Shown: one piece after another, positions 655 through 27,441 of the stretch
Position numbering within the stretch: position 1 is the stretch's first letter
How the letters are laid out: the number at the start of each line of letters is the position of its first letter
Source of the DNA: a virus
Lineage: Duplodnaviria; Caudoviricetes
IMG/VR virus record: IMGVR_UViG_3300020044_005424
Span: 1 to 28,028 of that record
Strand: one strand, 5' to 3'
DNA: 28,028 bases
Notes under the pieces: model-generated
What the model was told of the DNA's origin: nothing
Databases searched by the model: none
What the model saw: only the letters and a program-made list of their open reading frames with translations
Made by a program: the position numbers and the translations under genes

Positions 655-657
655 GGC

Positions 658-767
658 GTTGACGACGAAGTAGGATTCACGTCACCATTCACCCCTCCGG
701 CGCGTAGAGCAATGGATCTAGGGCTGGCACGAGTACTCCGACCTCCTCGTGCTAGCCCTTTGTTTTT
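658..767 (+). ncRNA. Candidate two-hairpin small RNA or leader ending in a terminator-like stem
   Basis: Hairpin TGACG-ac-GAA[GTAGGA]TTC-a-CGTCA 660-684; 14-bp stem AGGGCTGGCACGAG/CTCGTGCTAGCCCT 720-759 followed by TTGTTTTT; directly downstream of a promoter. Confidence 0.5.
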
Positions 768-1193: not shown

Positions 1194-1685
1194 ATGAATG
1201 CAGAACAAATACAAAAGGAAATCAGATCGGTGGATAGGAAAATCGAGTTCGAGAAGGGCAAGATCGTTAGGATCAACCAAATCATTGATACGATTAGAGG
1301 CAACATTGATCAACTCGATATCCAAAAACGACAACTTAAAAAGAAGCTGACACTTATCGGAAAAGACGAGAAGCTCCCCAATGGATGCGAGATAAGCCTG
1401 GATGGGTTTTGGATGCAGATCATGGAGTCTGGGATTGATAAGCGAGATATATTTATCCTTCAGAACGATGACCTAAAACCAGCTCAACTTGGTCGGCTCT
1501 TGGGCATAACGACTGGTAGGGCGTATCAACTCAAGCAACACGCGATAAGAAAGATGAGAAGGCGCGAGAGACTTGAGATAATTGAAGACTATTACGAAGA
1601 CATTGAGTACGCCCACCATGTCCGTGACTTTAATCAGTTGATTGAGGAGCAAGACGCTAAAGATAAGATCGTCCTAATGGCGTAA
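1194..1685 (+). CDS. Coiled-coil plus sigma70 region-4-like HTH protein (putative transcription regulator)
   Basis: N-terminal heptad coiled coil; DKRDIFIL...LKPAQLGRLLGITTGRAYQLKQHAIRKMRR resembles sigma region 4.2 (EIGxxxGVTRERVRQIExxALRKLR). No region 2 seen. Confidence 0.7.
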   Translation: MNAEQIQKEIRSVDRKIEFEKGKIVRINQIIDTIRGNIDQLDIQKRQLKKKLTLIGKDEKLPNGCEISLDGFWMQIMESGIDKRDIFILQNDDLKPAQLGRLLGITTGRAYQLKQHAIRKMRRRERLEIIEDYYEDIEYAHHVRDFNQLIEEQDAKDKIVLMA

Positions 1686-1723
1686 AGAAAACACCCCCGA
1701 GAGATTTTAACCTCCCGAGGGTG
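1684..1723 (-). terminator. Intrinsic terminator, minus strand
   Basis: CACCCTCGGGAG-loop-CTCTCGGGGGTG-TTTTCTTT; 12-bp stem with two G-U pairs that form only on the minus-strand RNA. Confidence 0.8.
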
Positions 1724-1791
1724 AAACTATGAAACGAACGATGAAACAAAACACACGCTACCTACAACGATCAAGTCTTCGCTAGCGTGCG
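1684..1791 (-). ncRNA. Candidate trans-acting sRNA with anti-start-codon seed
   Basis: TTGACA at 1825-1820 with weak -10; 5' stem CGCACGCTA/TAGCGTGTG; unpaired UUUUGUUUCAUCGUUCGUUUCAUAGUUU; 3' terminator. Confidence 0.55.
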
Positions 1792-1821
1792 GGGAATGCT
1801 TAGACCATTCCAGCGGGTTTG

Positions 1822-2127
1822 TCAAGCTATCCGTTTCGGCCCAACTCCAGCAGGGCCAGTAAAGCTCCCTTGTGGTTGCGGAATTCCCATTCCAGCTTGG
1901 CTTCCTTGAGCTGCCATACCAGACTGACCCATTCCGCTCATTGAGGCTGGAATCTGTGAGTAGGTAGCAGATGACATTGTTCCACGAGCTTTATTCTGAG
2001 ATGTGGCTGGTCGGTAGAACATGCTTGTAGGCATTGCTTTTGCGGCTTGGGCTTTCATGGCATTCATGCCACCCATTGACTGCATCTTGTTGGAGATTGC
2101 CTTGTTAAGGCCTTGGCGATTCATCAT
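1822..2127 (-). CDS. Hypothetical low-complexity M/Q/S/G/A-rich protein
   Basis: 101-aa ORF co-oriented with the late operon, A/T-rich leader; no acidic residues, probably disordered. Confidence 0.6.
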   Translation of the reverse strand: MMNRQGLNKAISNKMQSMGGMNAMKAQAAKAMPTSMFYRPATSQNKARGTMSSATYSQIPASMSGMGQSGMAAQGSQAGMGIPQPQGSFTGPAGVGPKRIA

Positions 2128-2152: not shown

Positions 2153-2356
2153 TTAGGATAACACTGAGAGTAGCTCATCCAGCGTAGAGATGCTTCCTGC
2201 GAGCTTCATCACATCATTCGATGATTCTGCTTGGCGGAAATCTCCAAAGAACTTCTCACGCTCATCGTGGATGAACTGAAGGATGGCGGCATACTCCTCG
2301 CGGTCACGGAGGGCTTCTACGGCTACTTGGATGGTTGGTTTCGGTATCGGTGTCAT
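2153..2356 (-). CDS. Hypothetical head-module protein
   Basis: 67-aa helical ORF in the usual position between portal and scaffold. Confidence 0.7.
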   Translation of the reverse strand: MTPIPKPTIQVAVEALRDREEYAAILQFIHDEREKFFGDFRQAESSNDVMKLAGSISTLDELLSVLS

Positions 2357-2488: not shown

Positions 2489-3043
2489 TTATCCTTGTTG
2501 CATTTGTTGGGTTTGCACCAAATACTTTGATGCGTTAATTAAAAACTCTGGGTTGTCTTGGAATTGTCCGAGTCCAGCATTGCATCTGGCACACAAAAGA
2601 CCTCTGACTTTGCCAGTTTTGTGGCAATGGTCAACGCACAAAAAGCGTTCTTCTCCGTCTTTGGTAATTCCTTGTTGGGATTCGTTGCAGATAGCACAAA
2701 GCCCCAGTTGCGACTCATACATGGAAATATAGTCTTCATTACTTAGACCATATTGCCGCATCAGTCGATTACCTCTGATTCTTTGCTGATTTCTTTCGCT
2801 CCAGTTTTTGAATGACTTACTTTTCTTCTCCTTATTGGCATGATGCCATTCTCTTAGGGTTGCTCTAGATTTCTCTACATTTGACCAATATCTCGTTTTG
2901 GCGTTTTTATTTGCAGCATCGCGCATGGATAGGAACTTCTCTGATGTCACCCATTTTTGTTTTCCGTTTTGCTCGTAACGCCAGAATACAAGTTTAGTAT
3001 TCTCGTCAACTTGCCCATGTTTTAATCTAATAGAGGAGTCCAT
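2489..3043 (-). CDS. Endonuclease VII-family (His-Me finger) free-standing homing endonuclease
   Basis: YGLSNEDY..Q.GLCAIC...LCVDHCHKTGKVRGLLCARCNAGLGQFQDN matches the Endonuclease_7 pattern; AT-richer than portal; TAATG overlap with portal stop. Confidence 0.9.
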   Translation of the reverse strand: MDSSIRLKHGQVDENTKLVFWRYEQNGKQKWVTSEKFLSMRDAANKNAKTRYWSNVEKSRATLREWHHANKEKKSKSFKNWSERNQQRIRGNRLMRQYGLSNEDYISMYESQLGLCAICNESQQGITKDGEERFLCVDHCHKTGKVRGLLCARCNAGLGQFQDNPEFLINASKYLVQTQQMQQG

Positions 3044-5109
3044 TACTGCTGCATGTTCTGCGTTATGATTCCACCCATTTGGGCGGGACGAACTCCAATT
3101 TTACCAATTTCGGCATTTTCCATTTGTTGCAATTGGAACTGATAAGCCTCCATATATTTCTGAAGCCTTGCACCAAACGCCTCGTCCTGCTGTGCGCGTT
3201 GCATGATGTCTGGTTGCTGGACATACGCTTGGATCATCTGCATTGCCATCTGTGCGCCATTAGGCTGGGCGGGAACTTCGATGCCGGCGAAGATCTTAGC
3301 AAGGTCATCTGTGACATTCTTTTGAACCTTCTGTTGTGCCTCCTCTGCTGGCTGGAGAACATAGTCAGCAAAGATTGGGTTGATGCTGGATGCCGTGAAC
3401 TCAAGCAACTTATTCACATCCATGATGCCGTTGCGGTCTAGCTGCACCAATGACACCATGTTCTTGAGCTGCGTCTCGGCAGTCTCTGGGTCGTTGCTCT
3501 GTGAGTCGAAGTTGACCACGATGCTGAAGTTTTCATCAGCCGAACCCTTGGTCATCACCTGTGGGTTGGGATTGCCAGTAACTTGGAAGAACACTTCATC
3601 TGGCCCCATTCTCTGATACAACTTCCACGCCATGTTCAGTACATCGCGGACATGATCCAAGAACTTAGACACCACGAATTGCTGGCGTGAGGCGGAGATT
3701 GGGTTGGACATATCCAGACCAACGGCACGGTCTGCCTGTGCGGTCATGGATACCTCAACCTCAACAGAACCGTTGTCAGCTGGAGGCGGTGGCCCCCATT
3801 GGATCTCACCAAGGCGGCGATACGGAACCCTTACTCCTGGCCCCCAATCAGAGGGAGGACGACCAGCCGGGTGCAGCAATGGAGGGAGAGTAGCCAGAGA
3901 AGCACGATCAATACGAGAATCACGCTCGGTCTTGATTTGCATTTGCGCTCCACGGAGGATGTCCGAGAAGGTCTGGGTTTCGTACATGCGCTTCTGGTCG
4001 TTCGATAGGCGCGTAACCACAAAGGGGTAGTCGTCATAGCCGTTAAGGAGTTCGTGTTTGGCGAAACCTTCTGTGGTTGGGTGGAAGACCGTACAGTAGA
4101 TGCCCTCAGAACCGTCCTCCTCGTCAATCAAACGCTGGTAGCCATACACCACCATTACTAGGTCGTTGTCGTCCGTGATAGGCAAGCGGTCGATTGTCTT
4201 GAGCTTCTCGCCGTCGAGATACATGGAATCTTTACCACGAAGCCGCTCGATAGCATTCTCAACCCAATCGGCATCCCAGCCCTCGGAGGTTACTTTTTTC
4301 TCAAGCTCCTGAGATGTTAGGAATGTGCGCCAGAACACATACGGAGCGCGTTGAGGATCAGTCACATACGATGGGAAAAGAACCTCGCCATCGGGGGCGC
4401 ATGAGTAAACTACTGGGCAATCTACCGATGTACGAGGAACAGAGACTTCAGCCAAACCCTTCTTGCGAAGATCCATAATGGCTTTTTTTGCACGCTTTGA
4501 CGACAGGTCGGGGAATGCTGTCTGAAGCATACCGAATACCATCTCGTCATCAGCACCACTAACAATAAGTTCCGCTAGATCGGGGGAGACTTGTGCGATT
4601 TCCTCGATGGATACCTGTTGCAAATATGTCCTTTTTTCACGCTTCCATCCGACATACGACACCATCAACCCCTTCTCTAGCAGATAATTAGCACCCAATT
4701 CCATCTGTTGACGGAAGTTCGGGATGTATGTGGAGCGCATCCACTTGAGGAACCCAGACACCATTGAAGCCCGTGGCATAGATGCCATTGATGTCGGGAA
4801 CGCCTTAATGTGGGAACGCTGCAATGCTTGGTCCAGGATAGCCACAAATGCGTCGATACGCTCTCCGACGACATTGACCTCAATATCACTAGCTCCCTGC
4901 CAAGGAAAGGCATTTGCGGCTTGTTTACGGAGGTCGTCTGATTTACCCGGCCAAAGGTTACGGCGGTCATCATACGAGCGCAAGCAAGCCTCAAAGTATT
5001 CCTCCAAGTCAATAAGGCAATTGTCGTAGGCATCAGCCAACGCCATGACATTAGGTCCGTCCTCGGCGTAGATCATCGACTCTTCTTGCTCTTCTGTTGG
5101 TGCGCTCAT
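3043..5109 (-). CDS. Portal protein
   Basis: 688 aa, downstream of TerL; PWQGASD near N-terminus, YPFVVTRLS motif, Q-rich helical C-terminal barrel as in P22-like portals. Confidence 0.8.
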   Translation of the reverse strand: MSAPTEEQEESMIYAEDGPNVMALADAYDNCLIDLEEYFEACLRSYDDRRNLWPGKSDDLRKQAANAFPWQGASDIEVNVVGERIDAFVAILDQALQRSHIKAFPTSMASMPRASMVSGFLKWMRSTYIPNFRQQMELGANYLLEKGLMVSYVGWKREKRTYLQQVSIEEIAQVSPDLAELIVSGADDEMVFGMLQTAFPDLSSKRAKKAIMDLRKKGLAEVSVPRTSVDCPVVYSCAPDGEVLFPSYVTDPQRAPYVFWRTFLTSQELEKKVTSEGWDADWVENAIERLRGKDSMYLDGEKLKTIDRLPITDDNDLVMVVYGYQRLIDEEDGSEGIYCTVFHPTTEGFAKHELLNGYDDYPFVVTRLSNDQKRMYETQTFSDILRGAQMQIKTERDSRIDRASLATLPPLLHPAGRPPSDWGPGVRVPYRRLGEIQWGPPPPADNGSVEVEVSMTAQADRAVGLDMSNPISASRQQFVVSKFLDHVRDVLNMAWKLYQRMGPDEVFFQVTGNPNPQVMTKGSADENFSIVVNFDSQSNDPETAETQLKNMVSLVQLDRNGIMDVNKLLEFTASSINPIFADYVLQPAEEAQQKVQKNVTDDLAKIFAGIEVPAQPNGAQMAMQMIQAYVQQPDIMQRAQQDEAFGARLQKYMEAYQFQLQQMENAEIGKIGVRPAQMGGIITQNMQQ

Positions 5110-21176: not shown

Positions 21177-21227
21177 GATTCCGTTGCCAGCAAACAAGGC
21201 ACACTCCAACAATAACCAAATACAACG

Positions 21228-21389
21228 ATGAAACAAGCATTCCCACTTCCATCACGAGCCGAACTTGATTCGGCATTTGTTGCAATATATCGCTCCGACA
21301 TGCCGCACATCCACAAGCAGACTTTGCTTGTCTTGATGGAACGCGCAAAGCGTGAGGCAGACCGCAAGCTCGCAAAGCTCTCCAAATAA
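21228..21389 (+). CDS. Early hypothetical protein (53 aa)
   Basis: Not in ORF track. MKQAFPLPSRAELDSAFVAIYRSDMPHIHKQTLLVLMERAKREADRKLAKLSK; A/C-rich leader. Confidence 0.65.
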   Translation: MKQAFPLPSRAELDSAFVAIYRSDMPHIHKQTLLVLMERAKREADRKLAKLSK

Positions 21390-21807: not shown

Positions 21808-21945
21808 ATGACAACGAACAAACTCCGTAGATATTTCATTGACTCAATGCAAGAAGGACTTGCAAGTGTTTCAGATGCTCGCTTTTCACGCTTGGCGCGC
21901 GCCGTGGCGTATTTGAATCAACGCATGGAAAGGGGGGTGGCATGA
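21808..21945 (+). CDS. Early hypothetical protein (45 aa)
   Basis: Not in track. MTTNKLRRYFIDSMQEGLASVSDARFSRLARAVAYLNQRMERGVA; ATGA overlap with next gene. Confidence 0.65.
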   Translation: MTTNKLRRYFIDSMQEGLASVSDARFSRLARAVAYLNQRMERGVA

Positions 21946-22208
21946 ACACACTTGCCACGCTTAAGCATCACGTCACGGGCGCAATCGAACGCGGAGAGGC
22001 GCAAGCCATTGTTGAGATGCCTTGCAAGCCATGGCATGACTTTTCCGAGCTTGTCGGGGCAATCCGCAATTGTGAGACGCGCAAGCAATTTGACCGCATG
22101 GAAAGCCTATGTGATAAGGCGTATCACGGCGGGGCAATCACGGCAAAGCAACTGGCAAAGTTGGACGGTTTGCAAGCGGATTGCATGATTGAAAGGGGGG
22201 TGATTTGA
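21942..22208 (+). CDS. Early hypothetical protein
   Basis: 88-aa ORF, coupled at both ends. Confidence 0.7.
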   Translation: MNTLATLKHHVTGAIERGEAQAIVEMPCKPWHDFSELVGAIRNCETRKQFDRMESLCDKAYHGGAITAKQLAKLDGLQADCMIERGVI

Positions 22209-22442: not shown

Positions 22443-22482
22443 ACAACAAAACAACAACAACAACAACGAAAGGAAAACAACG

Positions 22483-22845
22483 ATGAAAAAAACAATGACC
22501 ACAAGCGATATCGCACATGAATTGATCGACGATGGAAACGCGAATTGGAGCCGTGCGGGTGCATTTGCCCTTGCCGAATACCTCGAAGAACTCGAAGAGA
22601 GCACGGGCGAGGAGATGGAGTTTGACCATGTGGCAATTCGATGCGAGTGGAGCGAATATGCCGACCTGGAAACTTGGCTCTCCGAATACTACGCCCGCCC
22701 GATTCCCGCCGCCTACGAATCCGCCGGCATCGATCTGGACGGTGAGGAAGACGAGGAGGAAAAAAAAGAGTTGATTCGCTCGCACATTCAAGACCACGGG
22801 ACTCTGATTGAGTTCAACGGCGGAATCGTCGTCTCGTCATTCTAA
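22483..22845 (+). CDS. Highly acidic early protein (possible DNA mimic)
   Basis: Re-started at ATG 22483; ALAEYLEELEESTGEEMEFDHVAIRCEWSEY; strong D/E excess. Confidence 0.7.
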   Translation: MKKTMTTSDIAHELIDDGNANWSRAGAFALAEYLEELEESTGEEMEFDHVAIRCEWSEYADLETWLSEYYARPIPAAYESAGIDLDGEEDEEEKKELIRSHIQDHGTLIEFNGGIVVSSF

Positions 22846-22863
22846 CCCTAACCCACCGAAACT

Positions 22864-23067
22864 ATGAAAACGAAAACGCAAAAACCCGCGCTCACCCTTG
22901 CGGGGGAGTTTCAAAAAGGTCTTGAAAGCGGGGAGTATCCACACCCCGAAAATACCCTAAAAGCAATCTCGGCAATCGTCCGAAAATCCACCGAGCCGCT
23001 TGTCCGCGCCTACTGGTCGGGGTACTTGTGCAAACTCACGCCCGATCAAATGAACATAGAAAACTAA
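22864..23067 (+). CDS. Early hypothetical protein
   Basis: 67-aa ORF with A/C-rich leader. Confidence 0.65.
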   Translation: MKTKTQKPALTLAGEFQKGLESGEYPHPENTLKAISAIVRKSTEPLVRAYWSGYLCKLTPDQMNIEN

Positions 23068-23079
23068 CCCACCGAAAAA

Positions 23080-23193
23080 ATGAACACACACAAACACACG
23101 CAAGGCCCCTGGTGCATCCACCGGGCATATGAGCGATCAAGACTTGCAAAACGCCCTCGCTGTCATTGCCAAGGTGAAAGGGGGGCGGCATGA
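23080..23193 (+). pseudogene. Probable internally deleted remnant of an 'HTPGPW' phage gene
   Basis: Starts MNTHKHTQGPW; another frame carries DLQNALAVIAKVKGG, resembling the usual C-terminus of this family; the middle is absent. Confidence 0.4.
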
Positions 23194-23673: not shown

Positions 23674-23898
23674 ATGACACTTGAAAAAGCAAAACGAGAC
23701 GGAGCAAGGCATGACTATCAAATGGCAAGCTCTGCATTCAATGAGAGGATACACCTTATCACAAACCGCGACCCGTGGGGGCGTTATGCGTCCCTAATGG
23801 TGGGGTGCTACGGGGTGAACATCGAGCGGCGAGAGGTTGCGAAAATGCTTCGCCATTGCCGCAGAATCGAAAGATCAAATGGAAAGGTGGCGGCATGA
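23674..23898 (+). CDS. Hypothetical protein
   Basis: 74-aa ORF, A/C-rich leader, ATGA overlap downstream. Confidence 0.65.
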   Translation: MTLEKAKRDGARHDYQMASSAFNERIHLITNRDPWGRYASLMVGCYGVNIERREVAKMLRHCRRIERSNGKVAA

Positions 23899-24332: not shown

Positions 24333-24517
24333 AAAAGCAAATGATCTTGGCCTTGACTATCTTCGGTCACCTATTCCTTTTCCTTTTCGTGGATTCGCTA
24401 TTCGAAGCCCCGACAAGGTGGAAAATGTGGGCATTCTACGGCTCAAGCCTGCTATCCGTGGCGGTCTGGGGGGCATATGTGATCAAAGACGACATGGACG
24501 GAGGGGGAACCGCATGA
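24329..24517 (+). CDS. Small two-TM membrane protein
   Basis: MKKQMILALTIFGHLFLFLFVD...WAFYGSSLLSVAVWGAYVI; coupled at both ends. Confidence 0.65.
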   Translation: MKKQMILALTIFGHLFLFLFVDSLFEAPTRWKMWAFYGSSLLSVAVWGAYVIKDDMDGGGTA

Positions 24518-25070: not shown

Positions 25071-25282
25071 TTAAACTATTTAGCTTGCAAGAGATGGCAG
25101 ATGACTTGAAACTGCCTCCAGCTGTGGTTGCTCTCTGGGCTACTGATGGCTACATACCTTATGTAAGGAAGGATGGACTTCCTTTATTCGATCCCATCGC
25201 GGTGGGGACGCACATCGCAAAACAATTGAACGAACTAAACAAAATCGACGATGGAAACACAACAGACACAACCACAAACTGA
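25067..25282 (+). CDS. Excisionase/MerR-like winged-HTH protein
   Basis: LFSLQEMADDLKLPPAVVALWATDGYIPYVRKDGLPLFD pattern. Confidence 0.7.
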   Translation: MIKLFSLQEMADDLKLPPAVVALWATDGYIPYVRKDGLPLFDPIAVGTHIAKQLNELNKIDDGNTTDTTTN

Positions 25283-26025
25283 AGCGATTGCGGCGCACGA
25301 ACCGCAAAACACGGGCATTCTGGCGCAAGTCGCGGCTGAAACACAAGCATTCGAGCTTGTGCAACGGCAAGCGATGATGCTCTCAAAGAACCCTAGTCCC
25401 CAAGGACTTTGCCGGCAATGTAGCAAACTGCGCGATTGCCCTCAATGTGGCAAAGCGCACAAGGCTCGACCCTTTGATGGTCACGCAAAACCTCGCCATT
25501 ATCCACGGGCGGCCAAGCTGGAGCGCAACGGCACTGATCGGCATGATCAACGCTAGCGGGAAATTCTCCCCCTTGCGCTTCGTGATGGACAACGACGAAA
25601 CCCCAACATCCTGCTACGCTGTCGCGCGTGACATGGCAACGGGTGAGGAACTCAAAGGCGAGCGCATCACGCTGGAGATGGCAAAGAAGGAAGGCTGGAG
25701 CACAAAGAACGGAAGCAAGTGGCTGACCATGCCTGGTCAAATGCTCCGCTATCGTGCCGCTTCATTCTGGAGCCGTGCATACGCCTCGGACATGTCGCTG
25801 GGCATGTACACGCAGGACGAGGTGCGAGACTTTGCAGAACCCCCGCGCAATGTCACCCCGAAGGCGAACCCATTCGTAGCTGAACCAGAACCCGAGCCGA
25901 AAGCTGAACCCGTCGAGGTTGTCGAGGCGCAGGTTGTTGAGGATAAGCCCAAGGGGAACACAAAACCCCACGCTGAAAAGATCGCAGAAGCATTCGAGAA
26001 AATGACCAAGGAGGTAGAACCATGA
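25251..26025 (+). CDS. RecT/Red-beta-like single-strand annealing protein, frameshifted near 25388
   Basis: Two track ORFs join as ...QAMMLSK|TLVPKDFAGNVANCAIALN...LAIIHGRPSWSA...SKWLTMPGQMLRYRAASFWSR; directly upstream of a RecE-like exonuclease. Confidence 0.8.
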
Positions 26026-27234: not shown

Positions 27235-27441
27235 ATGATTGAAATGTTGACACCAATGGAGGCGCAGAAGCTGGGTCATGTCCCGCTTACTCGCCCATAC
27301 AGAGAAGACTATGAACACGAAATGAGATGGCTTCGCACCGTTCTGCGTGACATGAGGGGATGCAACTTCTCCCTTGTGGATACTGGCAGAGGGCTTGAAG
27401 TCTGGAGACACAAAAAAGAACTAAACACGATCAAAGAATAA
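27235..27441 (+). CDS. Hypothetical protein
   Basis: 68-aa ORF in operon context. Confidence 0.65.
   Translation: MIEMLTPMEAQKLGHVPLTRPYREDYEHEMRWLRTVLRDMRGCNFSLVDTGRGLEVWRHKKELNTIKE

Follow-up and report, generated by a model that had tools for sequence, protein, structure and literature searches.

Most characterised phage small RNAs have either a single antisense gene or host mRNAs as their targets. Two described systems come closest to the element reported here. The enterobacterial RNA GcvB is described as using a G/U-rich seed against ACA translation enhancers and C/A-rich initiation regions (PMC3879156), and the C4 RNA of phages P1 and P7 as a transcript of three stem-loops that RNase P cuts to ∼77 nt, whose loops a′ and b′ pair, and which serves antirepressor control in lysogeny (PMC5320573). 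The lambdoid and P22 RNAs sar, OOP and aQ have one named target gene apiece; PreS, VpdS and DicF associate with Hfq and work in trans, largely on host mRNAs (PMC12197685). The portion of that review considered here, the 38 undescribed phage sRNAs of its Table S1 aside, presents no RNA directed against a shared early start context or a recombinase start, and a literature search (titles and abstract openings, mostly non-subscription) returned none.

Here we describe a small cassette on the minus strand of an uncultivated phage sequence, located between the portal and scaffold genes. Like GcvB, its predicted RNA would repress multiple targets through a single-stranded G/U-rich stretch placed on C/A-rich initiation regions. 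Unlike GcvB, which is a chromosomal gene with targets in amino-acid transport and metabolism, it is phage-encoded, 70–106 nt in length and without sequence or Rfam match; its seed includes anti-AUG and covers the first codons of mostly SD-less genes, and its predicted targets are the phage's own. Like C4, it would be a phage trans-acting antisense RNA with two pairing elements against ribosome-binding regions of its own mRNA, seed and target changing together. Unlike C4, it consists of two hairpins around an open linker, has many loose predicted targets and no Rfam hit, and belongs to phages that give no integrase or HTH_3 repressor matches. The cassette RNA is outside both the GcvB and the C4 families. 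As for sar, OOP, aQ, PreS, VpdS and DicF, the proposal is of a phage small RNA that tunes translation of phage or host mRNAs.

Genome layout and sampling

The window, that is, the whole stretch of DNA analysed, is a 28,028-nt (28-kb) fragment of a tailed phage (Caudoviricetes; IMGVR_UViG_3300020044_005424, positions 1–28,028). Its minus strand carries the structural genes, and its plus strand, from 21228 on, carries small early and recombination genes. The portal gene (3043..5109, minus strand) was the query for collecting relatives, and 133 loci were gathered with portal proteins of 77–100% identity. A conserved 67-aa gene (2153..2356, minus strand), which lies upstream of the cassette and is seen across relatives, was the locus marker; a further set of 53 contigs, picked for the annealase gene, contained 25 with this marker upstream of the locus. 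On the other side, the window has a convergent accessory 163-aa ORF (1194..1685, plus strand), which is absent beside the cassette in most relatives. In genomes G001–G014 and loci L286–L444, RecT-like and ERF-like annealase genes swap upstream of the exonuclease VIII gene. In one relative (G002:C1:1-4800), early genes are located on the opposite strand at the left end; this is an inverted arm, probably an assembly artefact.

None of the five complete relatives matched PF00589, PF07508 or PF01381, the integrase, serine recombinase and HTH_3 repressor families searched, which makes lysogeny control unlikely. SD-scarce phyla include Bacteroidota and some Verrucomicrobiota (PMC10783764). The host is likely to come from an SD-poor phylum; the host trace is one 3-kb contig inside a Nanopelagicaceae MAG, which may be mis-binned. 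The host phylum may be Verrucomicrobiota.

Anatomy of the cassette

On the minus strand, the cassette begins with a −35-like TTGACA (1825–1820), which overlaps the TGA stop of the upstream ORF 2127–1822. After a spacer of 17, it is followed by a −10-like TAAGCAT (1796..1802), which is non-canonical; transcription would start near 1790. The cassette promoter was not among the predictions of a consensus promoter scan of the window. The predicted sRNA (1684..1791) is about 105 nt in length and contains one 5′ hairpin (1752..1791), one open GU-rich core of 28 bases (1724..1751) and one intrinsic terminator (1684..1723). The core has two UCAU (anti-AUGA) seeds, at 1749–1737 and 1734–1723; the terminator is formed by a 14-pair stem (1723–1692) with three G-U pairs and a U-tract to 1684, which exists on the minus strand only. 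The sequence-only reading had proposed a minus-strand TTGACA, 5′ hairpin, unpaired core and terminator, and all of them are present. Its preference for this strand also held: the 109-nt stretch 1684–1792 folds at −41.8 kcal/mol (z = −4.98) on the minus strand and at −24.8 kcal/mol, 17 kcal/mol worse, on the plus strand, and the G-U pairs of the terminator point the same way.

Rfam 15, which includes GcvB and C4, gave no hit at gathering score across the window and none at E ≤ 1 in 300–2000. Three sequencing runs of the same study yielded one 35-nt piece, located outside the cassette, which has no bearing on the expression claim. The long 5′ hairpin of the window (1791–1752) is like that of a sister clade (L052/L167, ∼82% portal identity) and unlike those of close relatives; it is best read as a module exchange within the cassette.

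Conservation of the cassette

The cassette was found in 96 of the 133 portal loci, 90 by a detector built on promoter, GU-rich stretch and terminator (52 distinct bodies) and six on a second look; the remaining 37 loci stop within 2.4 kb of the portal gene, some of them inside the cassette. It is also present in all 25 further marker-bearing contigs, in 19 by detector and in six by eye, three of the latter with an uncertain 5′ end. The genes flanking it vary on both sides between relatives, and in the three relatives scanned, the window included, there is one copy per genome. All 58 distinct cassette sequences fold better on the sRNA strand, by a mean of −10.5 kcal/mol. The 5′ hairpin is swapped among three forms, long, cUUCGg and GAAA, the short cUUCGg or GAAA-loop forms being those of most relatives, and one stem position of the terminator shows compensatory changes (T-A, C-G, A-T). 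The conservation of TTGAC is partly by construction, because TTGAC[A/T] at 58–150 nt before the terminator served as the search anchor of the detector; of the 63 distinct cassette promoters, 34 carry a TTTAnT-like box and four carry TAnnnT.

By sequence, the cores, which are 75% G+U, group into 19 lineages. CAU occurs 19 times in the 19 lineage representatives, against 3.8 expected and a maximum of 11 in 5000 shuffles. It is present in 14 of the 19 representatives, and five lineages are mostly without it; UCA is retained even in these cores. Each core carries one to three UCAU in the open region, and the core units expand and contract like slippage products. The core type of L062, L063 and L143 has a 17-nt match to the opening codons of a 108-aa gene on the opposite strand (L178:9868–9545, L178 only) and also matches the ERF start; there is a hint here that seeds may arise by capture of gene starts.

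More distantly, 80 loci and phage C75C1, at 50–56% portal identity, gave no cassette by detector, where many loci are short and the detector had missed real cassettes; visual inspection of nine distant loci showed none immediately ahead of the scaffold gene. A pattern scan gave 35 matches, 18 of them known homologues and the others unrelated, and blastn against GenBank phages gave no meaningful match. Nor did we find a feature of cis-antisense RNAs or type I antitoxins: no conserved opposite-strand ORF lies over the cassette, and the opposite-strand neighbours vary or are absent. Sequence features of a trans-encoded sRNA are present, namely a putative promoter of its own (with non-canonical −10), a seed, an intrinsic terminator and conservation apart from the flanks. 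On this comparison, the cassette is a conserved, predicted RNA element without an Rfam family.

Complementarity of the core to early gene starts

The core has exact matches at 21224–21236 (13 nt), 22858–22869 (12 nt) and 22479–22488 (10 nt), each spanning the ATG of a real-looking start; the ORFs concerned encode 53 aa (21228), 67 aa (22864) and 120 aa (22483), respectively. These matches had been named before, together with one-bulge extensions of the second and third, and both extensions are readable in the sequence. For the chance test, we used 43 hand-curated starts and two nulls, one of shuffles keeping both ATGs and one of seeds sampled from the start profile of the phage itself. The three best ATG-anchored matches add up to 35, which is better than these matched nulls (P = 0.0022 and P = 0.0025, respectively); for three matches of at least 10 nt, P is 0.011 and 0.039. 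The target genes were also said to have no SD. This fails for 22483, which has an SD-like AAAGGA, and agrees with the curated starts in general, most of which are SD-less (SD-like words occur at 7 of the 24 starts on the plus strand and at 4 of the 19 on the minus strand). Overlapping, ATGA-coupled genes of the window (21925–21945, 22188–22207, 23173–23192, 23878–23897 and 24497–24516) have a strong G-rich SD-like word; the uncoupled genes, with A/C-rich SD-less leaders, form a second start class.

Conservation of the three named targets is poor: a comparison with 15 genomes and ∼130 loci gave no homologue of 21228, two of 22864 and six of 22483, and by this distribution all three are accessory genes; in the G004/G005 clade, no exact core match longer than 11 nt to the phages' own genes was found. 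The core mirrors the commonest early start contexts, which are ACT or ACG before AUG-AAA in the clade of the window and AUG-ACA or CAA-AUG in the sister clade, and it also mirrors A/C-rich leaders and first codons. The bases beside UCAU vary in step with the start contexts.

Pairing energies were predicted using a simplified IntaRNA-like script, with Turner stacking values, approximate loop costs and ViennaRNA accessibility; all energies below are predictions only. Plain RNAduplex ranking was swamped by G-U noise and was dropped in favour of this accessibility-corrected script. In the window, mean predicted pairing is −7.5 kcal/mol for early starts, −4.3 for late starts and −3.0 for random sites. 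On early starts, the window core does better than 22 of 22 plain and 20 of 20 CAU-keeping shuffles; the G005 core beats 12 of 12 shuffles twice and the G013 core 10 of 10, and the G011 core pairs with almost nothing. The predicted sites at the named starts are 21222..21237 (ORF 21228; −15.3 kcal/mol, rank 2 in the window), 22858..22885 (ORF 22864; −13.2 kcal/mol, rank 4) and 22475..22493 (ORF 22483; −12.2 kcal/mol, rank 7), all on the plus strand. The strongest predicted site (27306..27329, plus strand; −17.2 kcal/mol) is inside the CDS 27235–27441 and is probably incidental. A 93-aa late gene was considered as a conserved target and rejected; its start contexts do not track the seed.

The annealase start is a recurrent predicted target

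We ranked the 748 distinct starts of 15 genomes against 11 cores, leaving out three windows that overlap the sRNA itself. For 8 of the 11 cores, the best start is a RecT/ERF start, although such starts make up only 13 of the 748; the RecT and ERF family identities were confirmed. This recurrent target was absent from those named in the sequence-only reading. In the window, the predicted site at the start of the RecT-like gene is 25227..25259 (plus strand), with −10.0 to −10.3 kcal/mol, in the 12th percentile of early starts. The gene itself (25251–26025) is split into 25251–25556 and 25447–26025 by a frameshift near codon 47; it is intact in relatives, so that the split is an assembly error or a dead allele.

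The first-ranked RecT/ERF start often belonged to another phage. This better pairing with the alleles of other phages suggested a weapon against relatives, and 26 new genomes were therefore tested. Self-avoidance was ruled out, because own alleles rank better than the middle among 40 (median 11.5 of 40; own percentile 0.09, compared to 0.21 for non-self alleles). Among the early starts of a phage, that of its annealase falls within the top quarter in 37 of 40 phages and within the top tenth in 22. For the 26 held-out genomes, which like all genomes in the own-allele tests are related to one another, the own-allele residual is −1.73 kcal/mol and is negative in 23 (p < 5e-5). Among held-out lineage representatives, it is negative in 11 of 11 (p = 0.0024), three of these lineages being also in the discovery set. 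The signal is found within RecT carriers (p = 0.011) and within ERF carriers (p = 1.5e-4), and it is gone with shuffled cores, for which the residual ranges from −0.37 to +0.56. Own neighbouring early genes of the held-out genomes have a weaker residual (−0.65, p = 0.001); in 18 of 26 genomes, the annealase takes one of the top two places among them (7.1 expected).

Other numbers are more modest. Across all 40 phages, the 15 lineage representatives give p = 0.04 only, and no more than 7 of the 15 cores outperform every one of their five shuffles. Only three phages have their own allele ranked first among the 40, and many own-allele energies are between −6 and −12 kcal/mol. The window core pairs at −19.6 kcal/mol with the G001 allele and at −10.3 with its own RecT start; the G009 core pairs at −2.2 kcal/mol with its own RecT start and at a mean of −14.5 with ERF starts, which G009 does not carry. 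Natural allele pairs thus include a strong own match (G001) and a mismatch (G009). At the annealase locus of L449 (L327), a start 320 nt upstream of RecT is predicted to form an own duplex of −22.6 kcal/mol, far more stable than the one at its RecT start.

Among control genes, the exonuclease residual is not significant (−0.38, p = 0.14, n = 39), and the own-genome residuals of the SSB-like gene (+0.54, n = 19), the 52-aa gene (+0.22, n = 12) and the portal gene (+0.30, n = 15) are positive; the 52-aa and portal controls are without power, since the annealase signal is also not significant on those sets (p = 0.53 and 0.16, respectively). The linked late 67-aa gene has a marginal own-genome residual (−0.62, p = 0.03). 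With all early starts of the first 14 genomes, we observed no own-genome preference (p = 0.41 and 0.27) and only a weak clade preference; five windows overlapping the sRNA were excluded, and G011 was left out of this test and of the cross-phage allele comparison. Covariation of seed and target across related phages, an expectation of the sequence-only reading, therefore appears statistically in the 26 held-out genomes, not in the first 14, and not as one-to-one changes: no base-by-base compensatory seed-target pair was seen among the relatives compared. Its broader idea of a multi-target off-switch for early genes is in part sustained, by the conserved stand-alone cassette and by pairing that tracks own early starts, and in part weakened by the poor conservation of the genes it named. 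As modelled here, no start is predicted as a target more consistently than that of the ssDNA-annealing gene, RecT or ERF, which the phage itself carries, and support for the cassette targeting own early genes, annealase first, is moderate.

Neighbouring elements and promoters

A second conserved element is located between the cassette and the scaffold gene (window ∼655–760, minus strand; also in L038, L156, L160, L164 and L173–L186), overlapping the ORF 643–942. It consists of a hairpin and, ∼50 nt downstream, a segment to which the hairpin's arm and loop are complementary; in 30 matches the two covary as GAGGTCGGA/TCCGACCTC, GAGGTAGGA/TCCTACCTC, GAAGTAGGA/TCCTACTTC, GAGGTCGAA/TTCGACCTC and GAGATAGGA/TCCTATCTC; one match mixes two types with a mismatch, and the same is seen in the window. 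It has no Rfam hit (300–2000 searched) and looks like a pseudoknot or an alternative-pairing switch.

Many late-strand promoters of the clade (e.g. window 415–385, and the cassette promoters) are of the type TTGAC[A/T]-17/18-TTTAnT or TTGAnT, without the usual A at −11, and in distant relatives the scaffold gene is preceded by boxes of the TATAAT type. The promoter type of the clade may point to a host sigma variant or an activator.

Alternative explanations

The cassette could be nothing more than the portal operon's 3′ end with its terminator; the core would then be what is left of a captured early start expanded by slippage, resembling such starts at DNA level and not acting in trans. In its favour, core and early leaders repeat each other in direct orientation on one DNA strand, genes of the opposite strand whose starts are A/C-rich insert into the cassette interval, one core matches 17 nt of the start of such an inserted gene in another phage, an overlap of TTGAC with the upstream stop codon is frequent, and the core units grow and shrink as slippage products do. 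However, a remnant should decay, yet across 19 lineages the open GU-rich core, a 5′ hairpin distinct from it and CAU have been retained; moreover, other terminators in four genomes are without such a core, leaders of late-strand genes are A-rich as transcribed, the reverse of the core's composition, and the core tracks two unrelated annealase families ∼20 kb away. We consider this origin without function unlikely. It is quite unlikely, too, that the RNA is mainly a weapon that silences the annealase and early genes of co-infecting relatives while the carrier's alleles drift. The strongest duplexes (−15 to −23.6 kcal/mol) are usually with alleles of other phages, and G009 fits ERF starts that it does not possess, but with 39 non-self alleles in the comparison, the best of them should outdo a single own allele, and own alleles pair better on average, not worse, with no self-avoidance.

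No better odds are given to host mRNAs with the same SD-less A/C-rich context as the main targets, for shut-off or anti-defence, the likeness to phage starts being a shared start dialect. The seeds correspond to the commonest start contexts (ACT/ACG-AUG-AAA and AUG-ACA), which host genes may share, but an own-genome preference within one annealase type would be unexpected if host genes alone had shaped the core. The repeated UCA(U) might also serve as a protein-binding sponge, CsrB-like or as a nuclease decoy, rather than as seeds, and the one to three UCAU per open core, with UCA kept where CAU is lost, would suit such a site; with the bases flanking UCAU changing with start contexts and CAU-keeping shuffles losing the pairing advantage, we hold this to be very unlikely. 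The plus-strand 18-codon mini-ORF (1729–1785), the alternative offered by the sequence-only reading, has next to no probability as the functional unit: good plus-strand start contexts exist, but it is not conserved among relatives and was rejected because the opposite-strand ORFs range from 2 to 79 codons in shifting frames; they are absent in 7 of 52 distinct bodies, and every structure signal favours the minus strand.

Discussion

Our preferred reading, to which we give a probability of roughly 55%, is that the cassette encodes a GcvB-like, multi-target, trans-acting antisense sRNA that damps early translation, with the annealase start as its most consistent target. The RNA would be transcribed from the TTGAC promoter or released from the 3′ end of the portal operon, and its protected 5′ end, open seed and terminator would give it the anatomy of a base-pairing sRNA. 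In early genes of the same phage, the GU-rich core would pair with the AUG, the A/C-rich leader before it and the first codons, G-U pairs widening the reach of the core. Since most starts are SD-less, initiation is probably signalled by the open leader and would be prevented by pairing in that region; by analogy with GcvB, the step affected would be 30S loading.

The cassette lies on the late strand, and its promoter type TTGAC-17-TTGAnT is common to the scaffold gene; this position and the scaffold-like promoter suggest an early-to-late damper. In the likeliest role, early and recombination genes would be turned down as genome copies rise and packaging begins. A bolder version, which we find doubtful, is that this lytic family uses its one tiny RNA as an anti-start-codon master switch, the seed being re-tuned to the resident RecT or unrelated ERF gene and to the start dialect, and that the RNA both enforces the early-to-late change and cross-silences the recombinase genes of co-infecting relatives. 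Such cross-silencing could limit mosaic exchange.

How small lytic phages without a repressor shut off their early genes is largely an open question. The new part would be the tracking of RecT/ERF starts by an anti-start RNA, as the sequences predict it. If true, the cassette would act as a temporal switch that needs no protein and recognises the SD-less start context common to an entire class of genes, and its RNA would follow the recombinase start across a non-homologous gene replacement.
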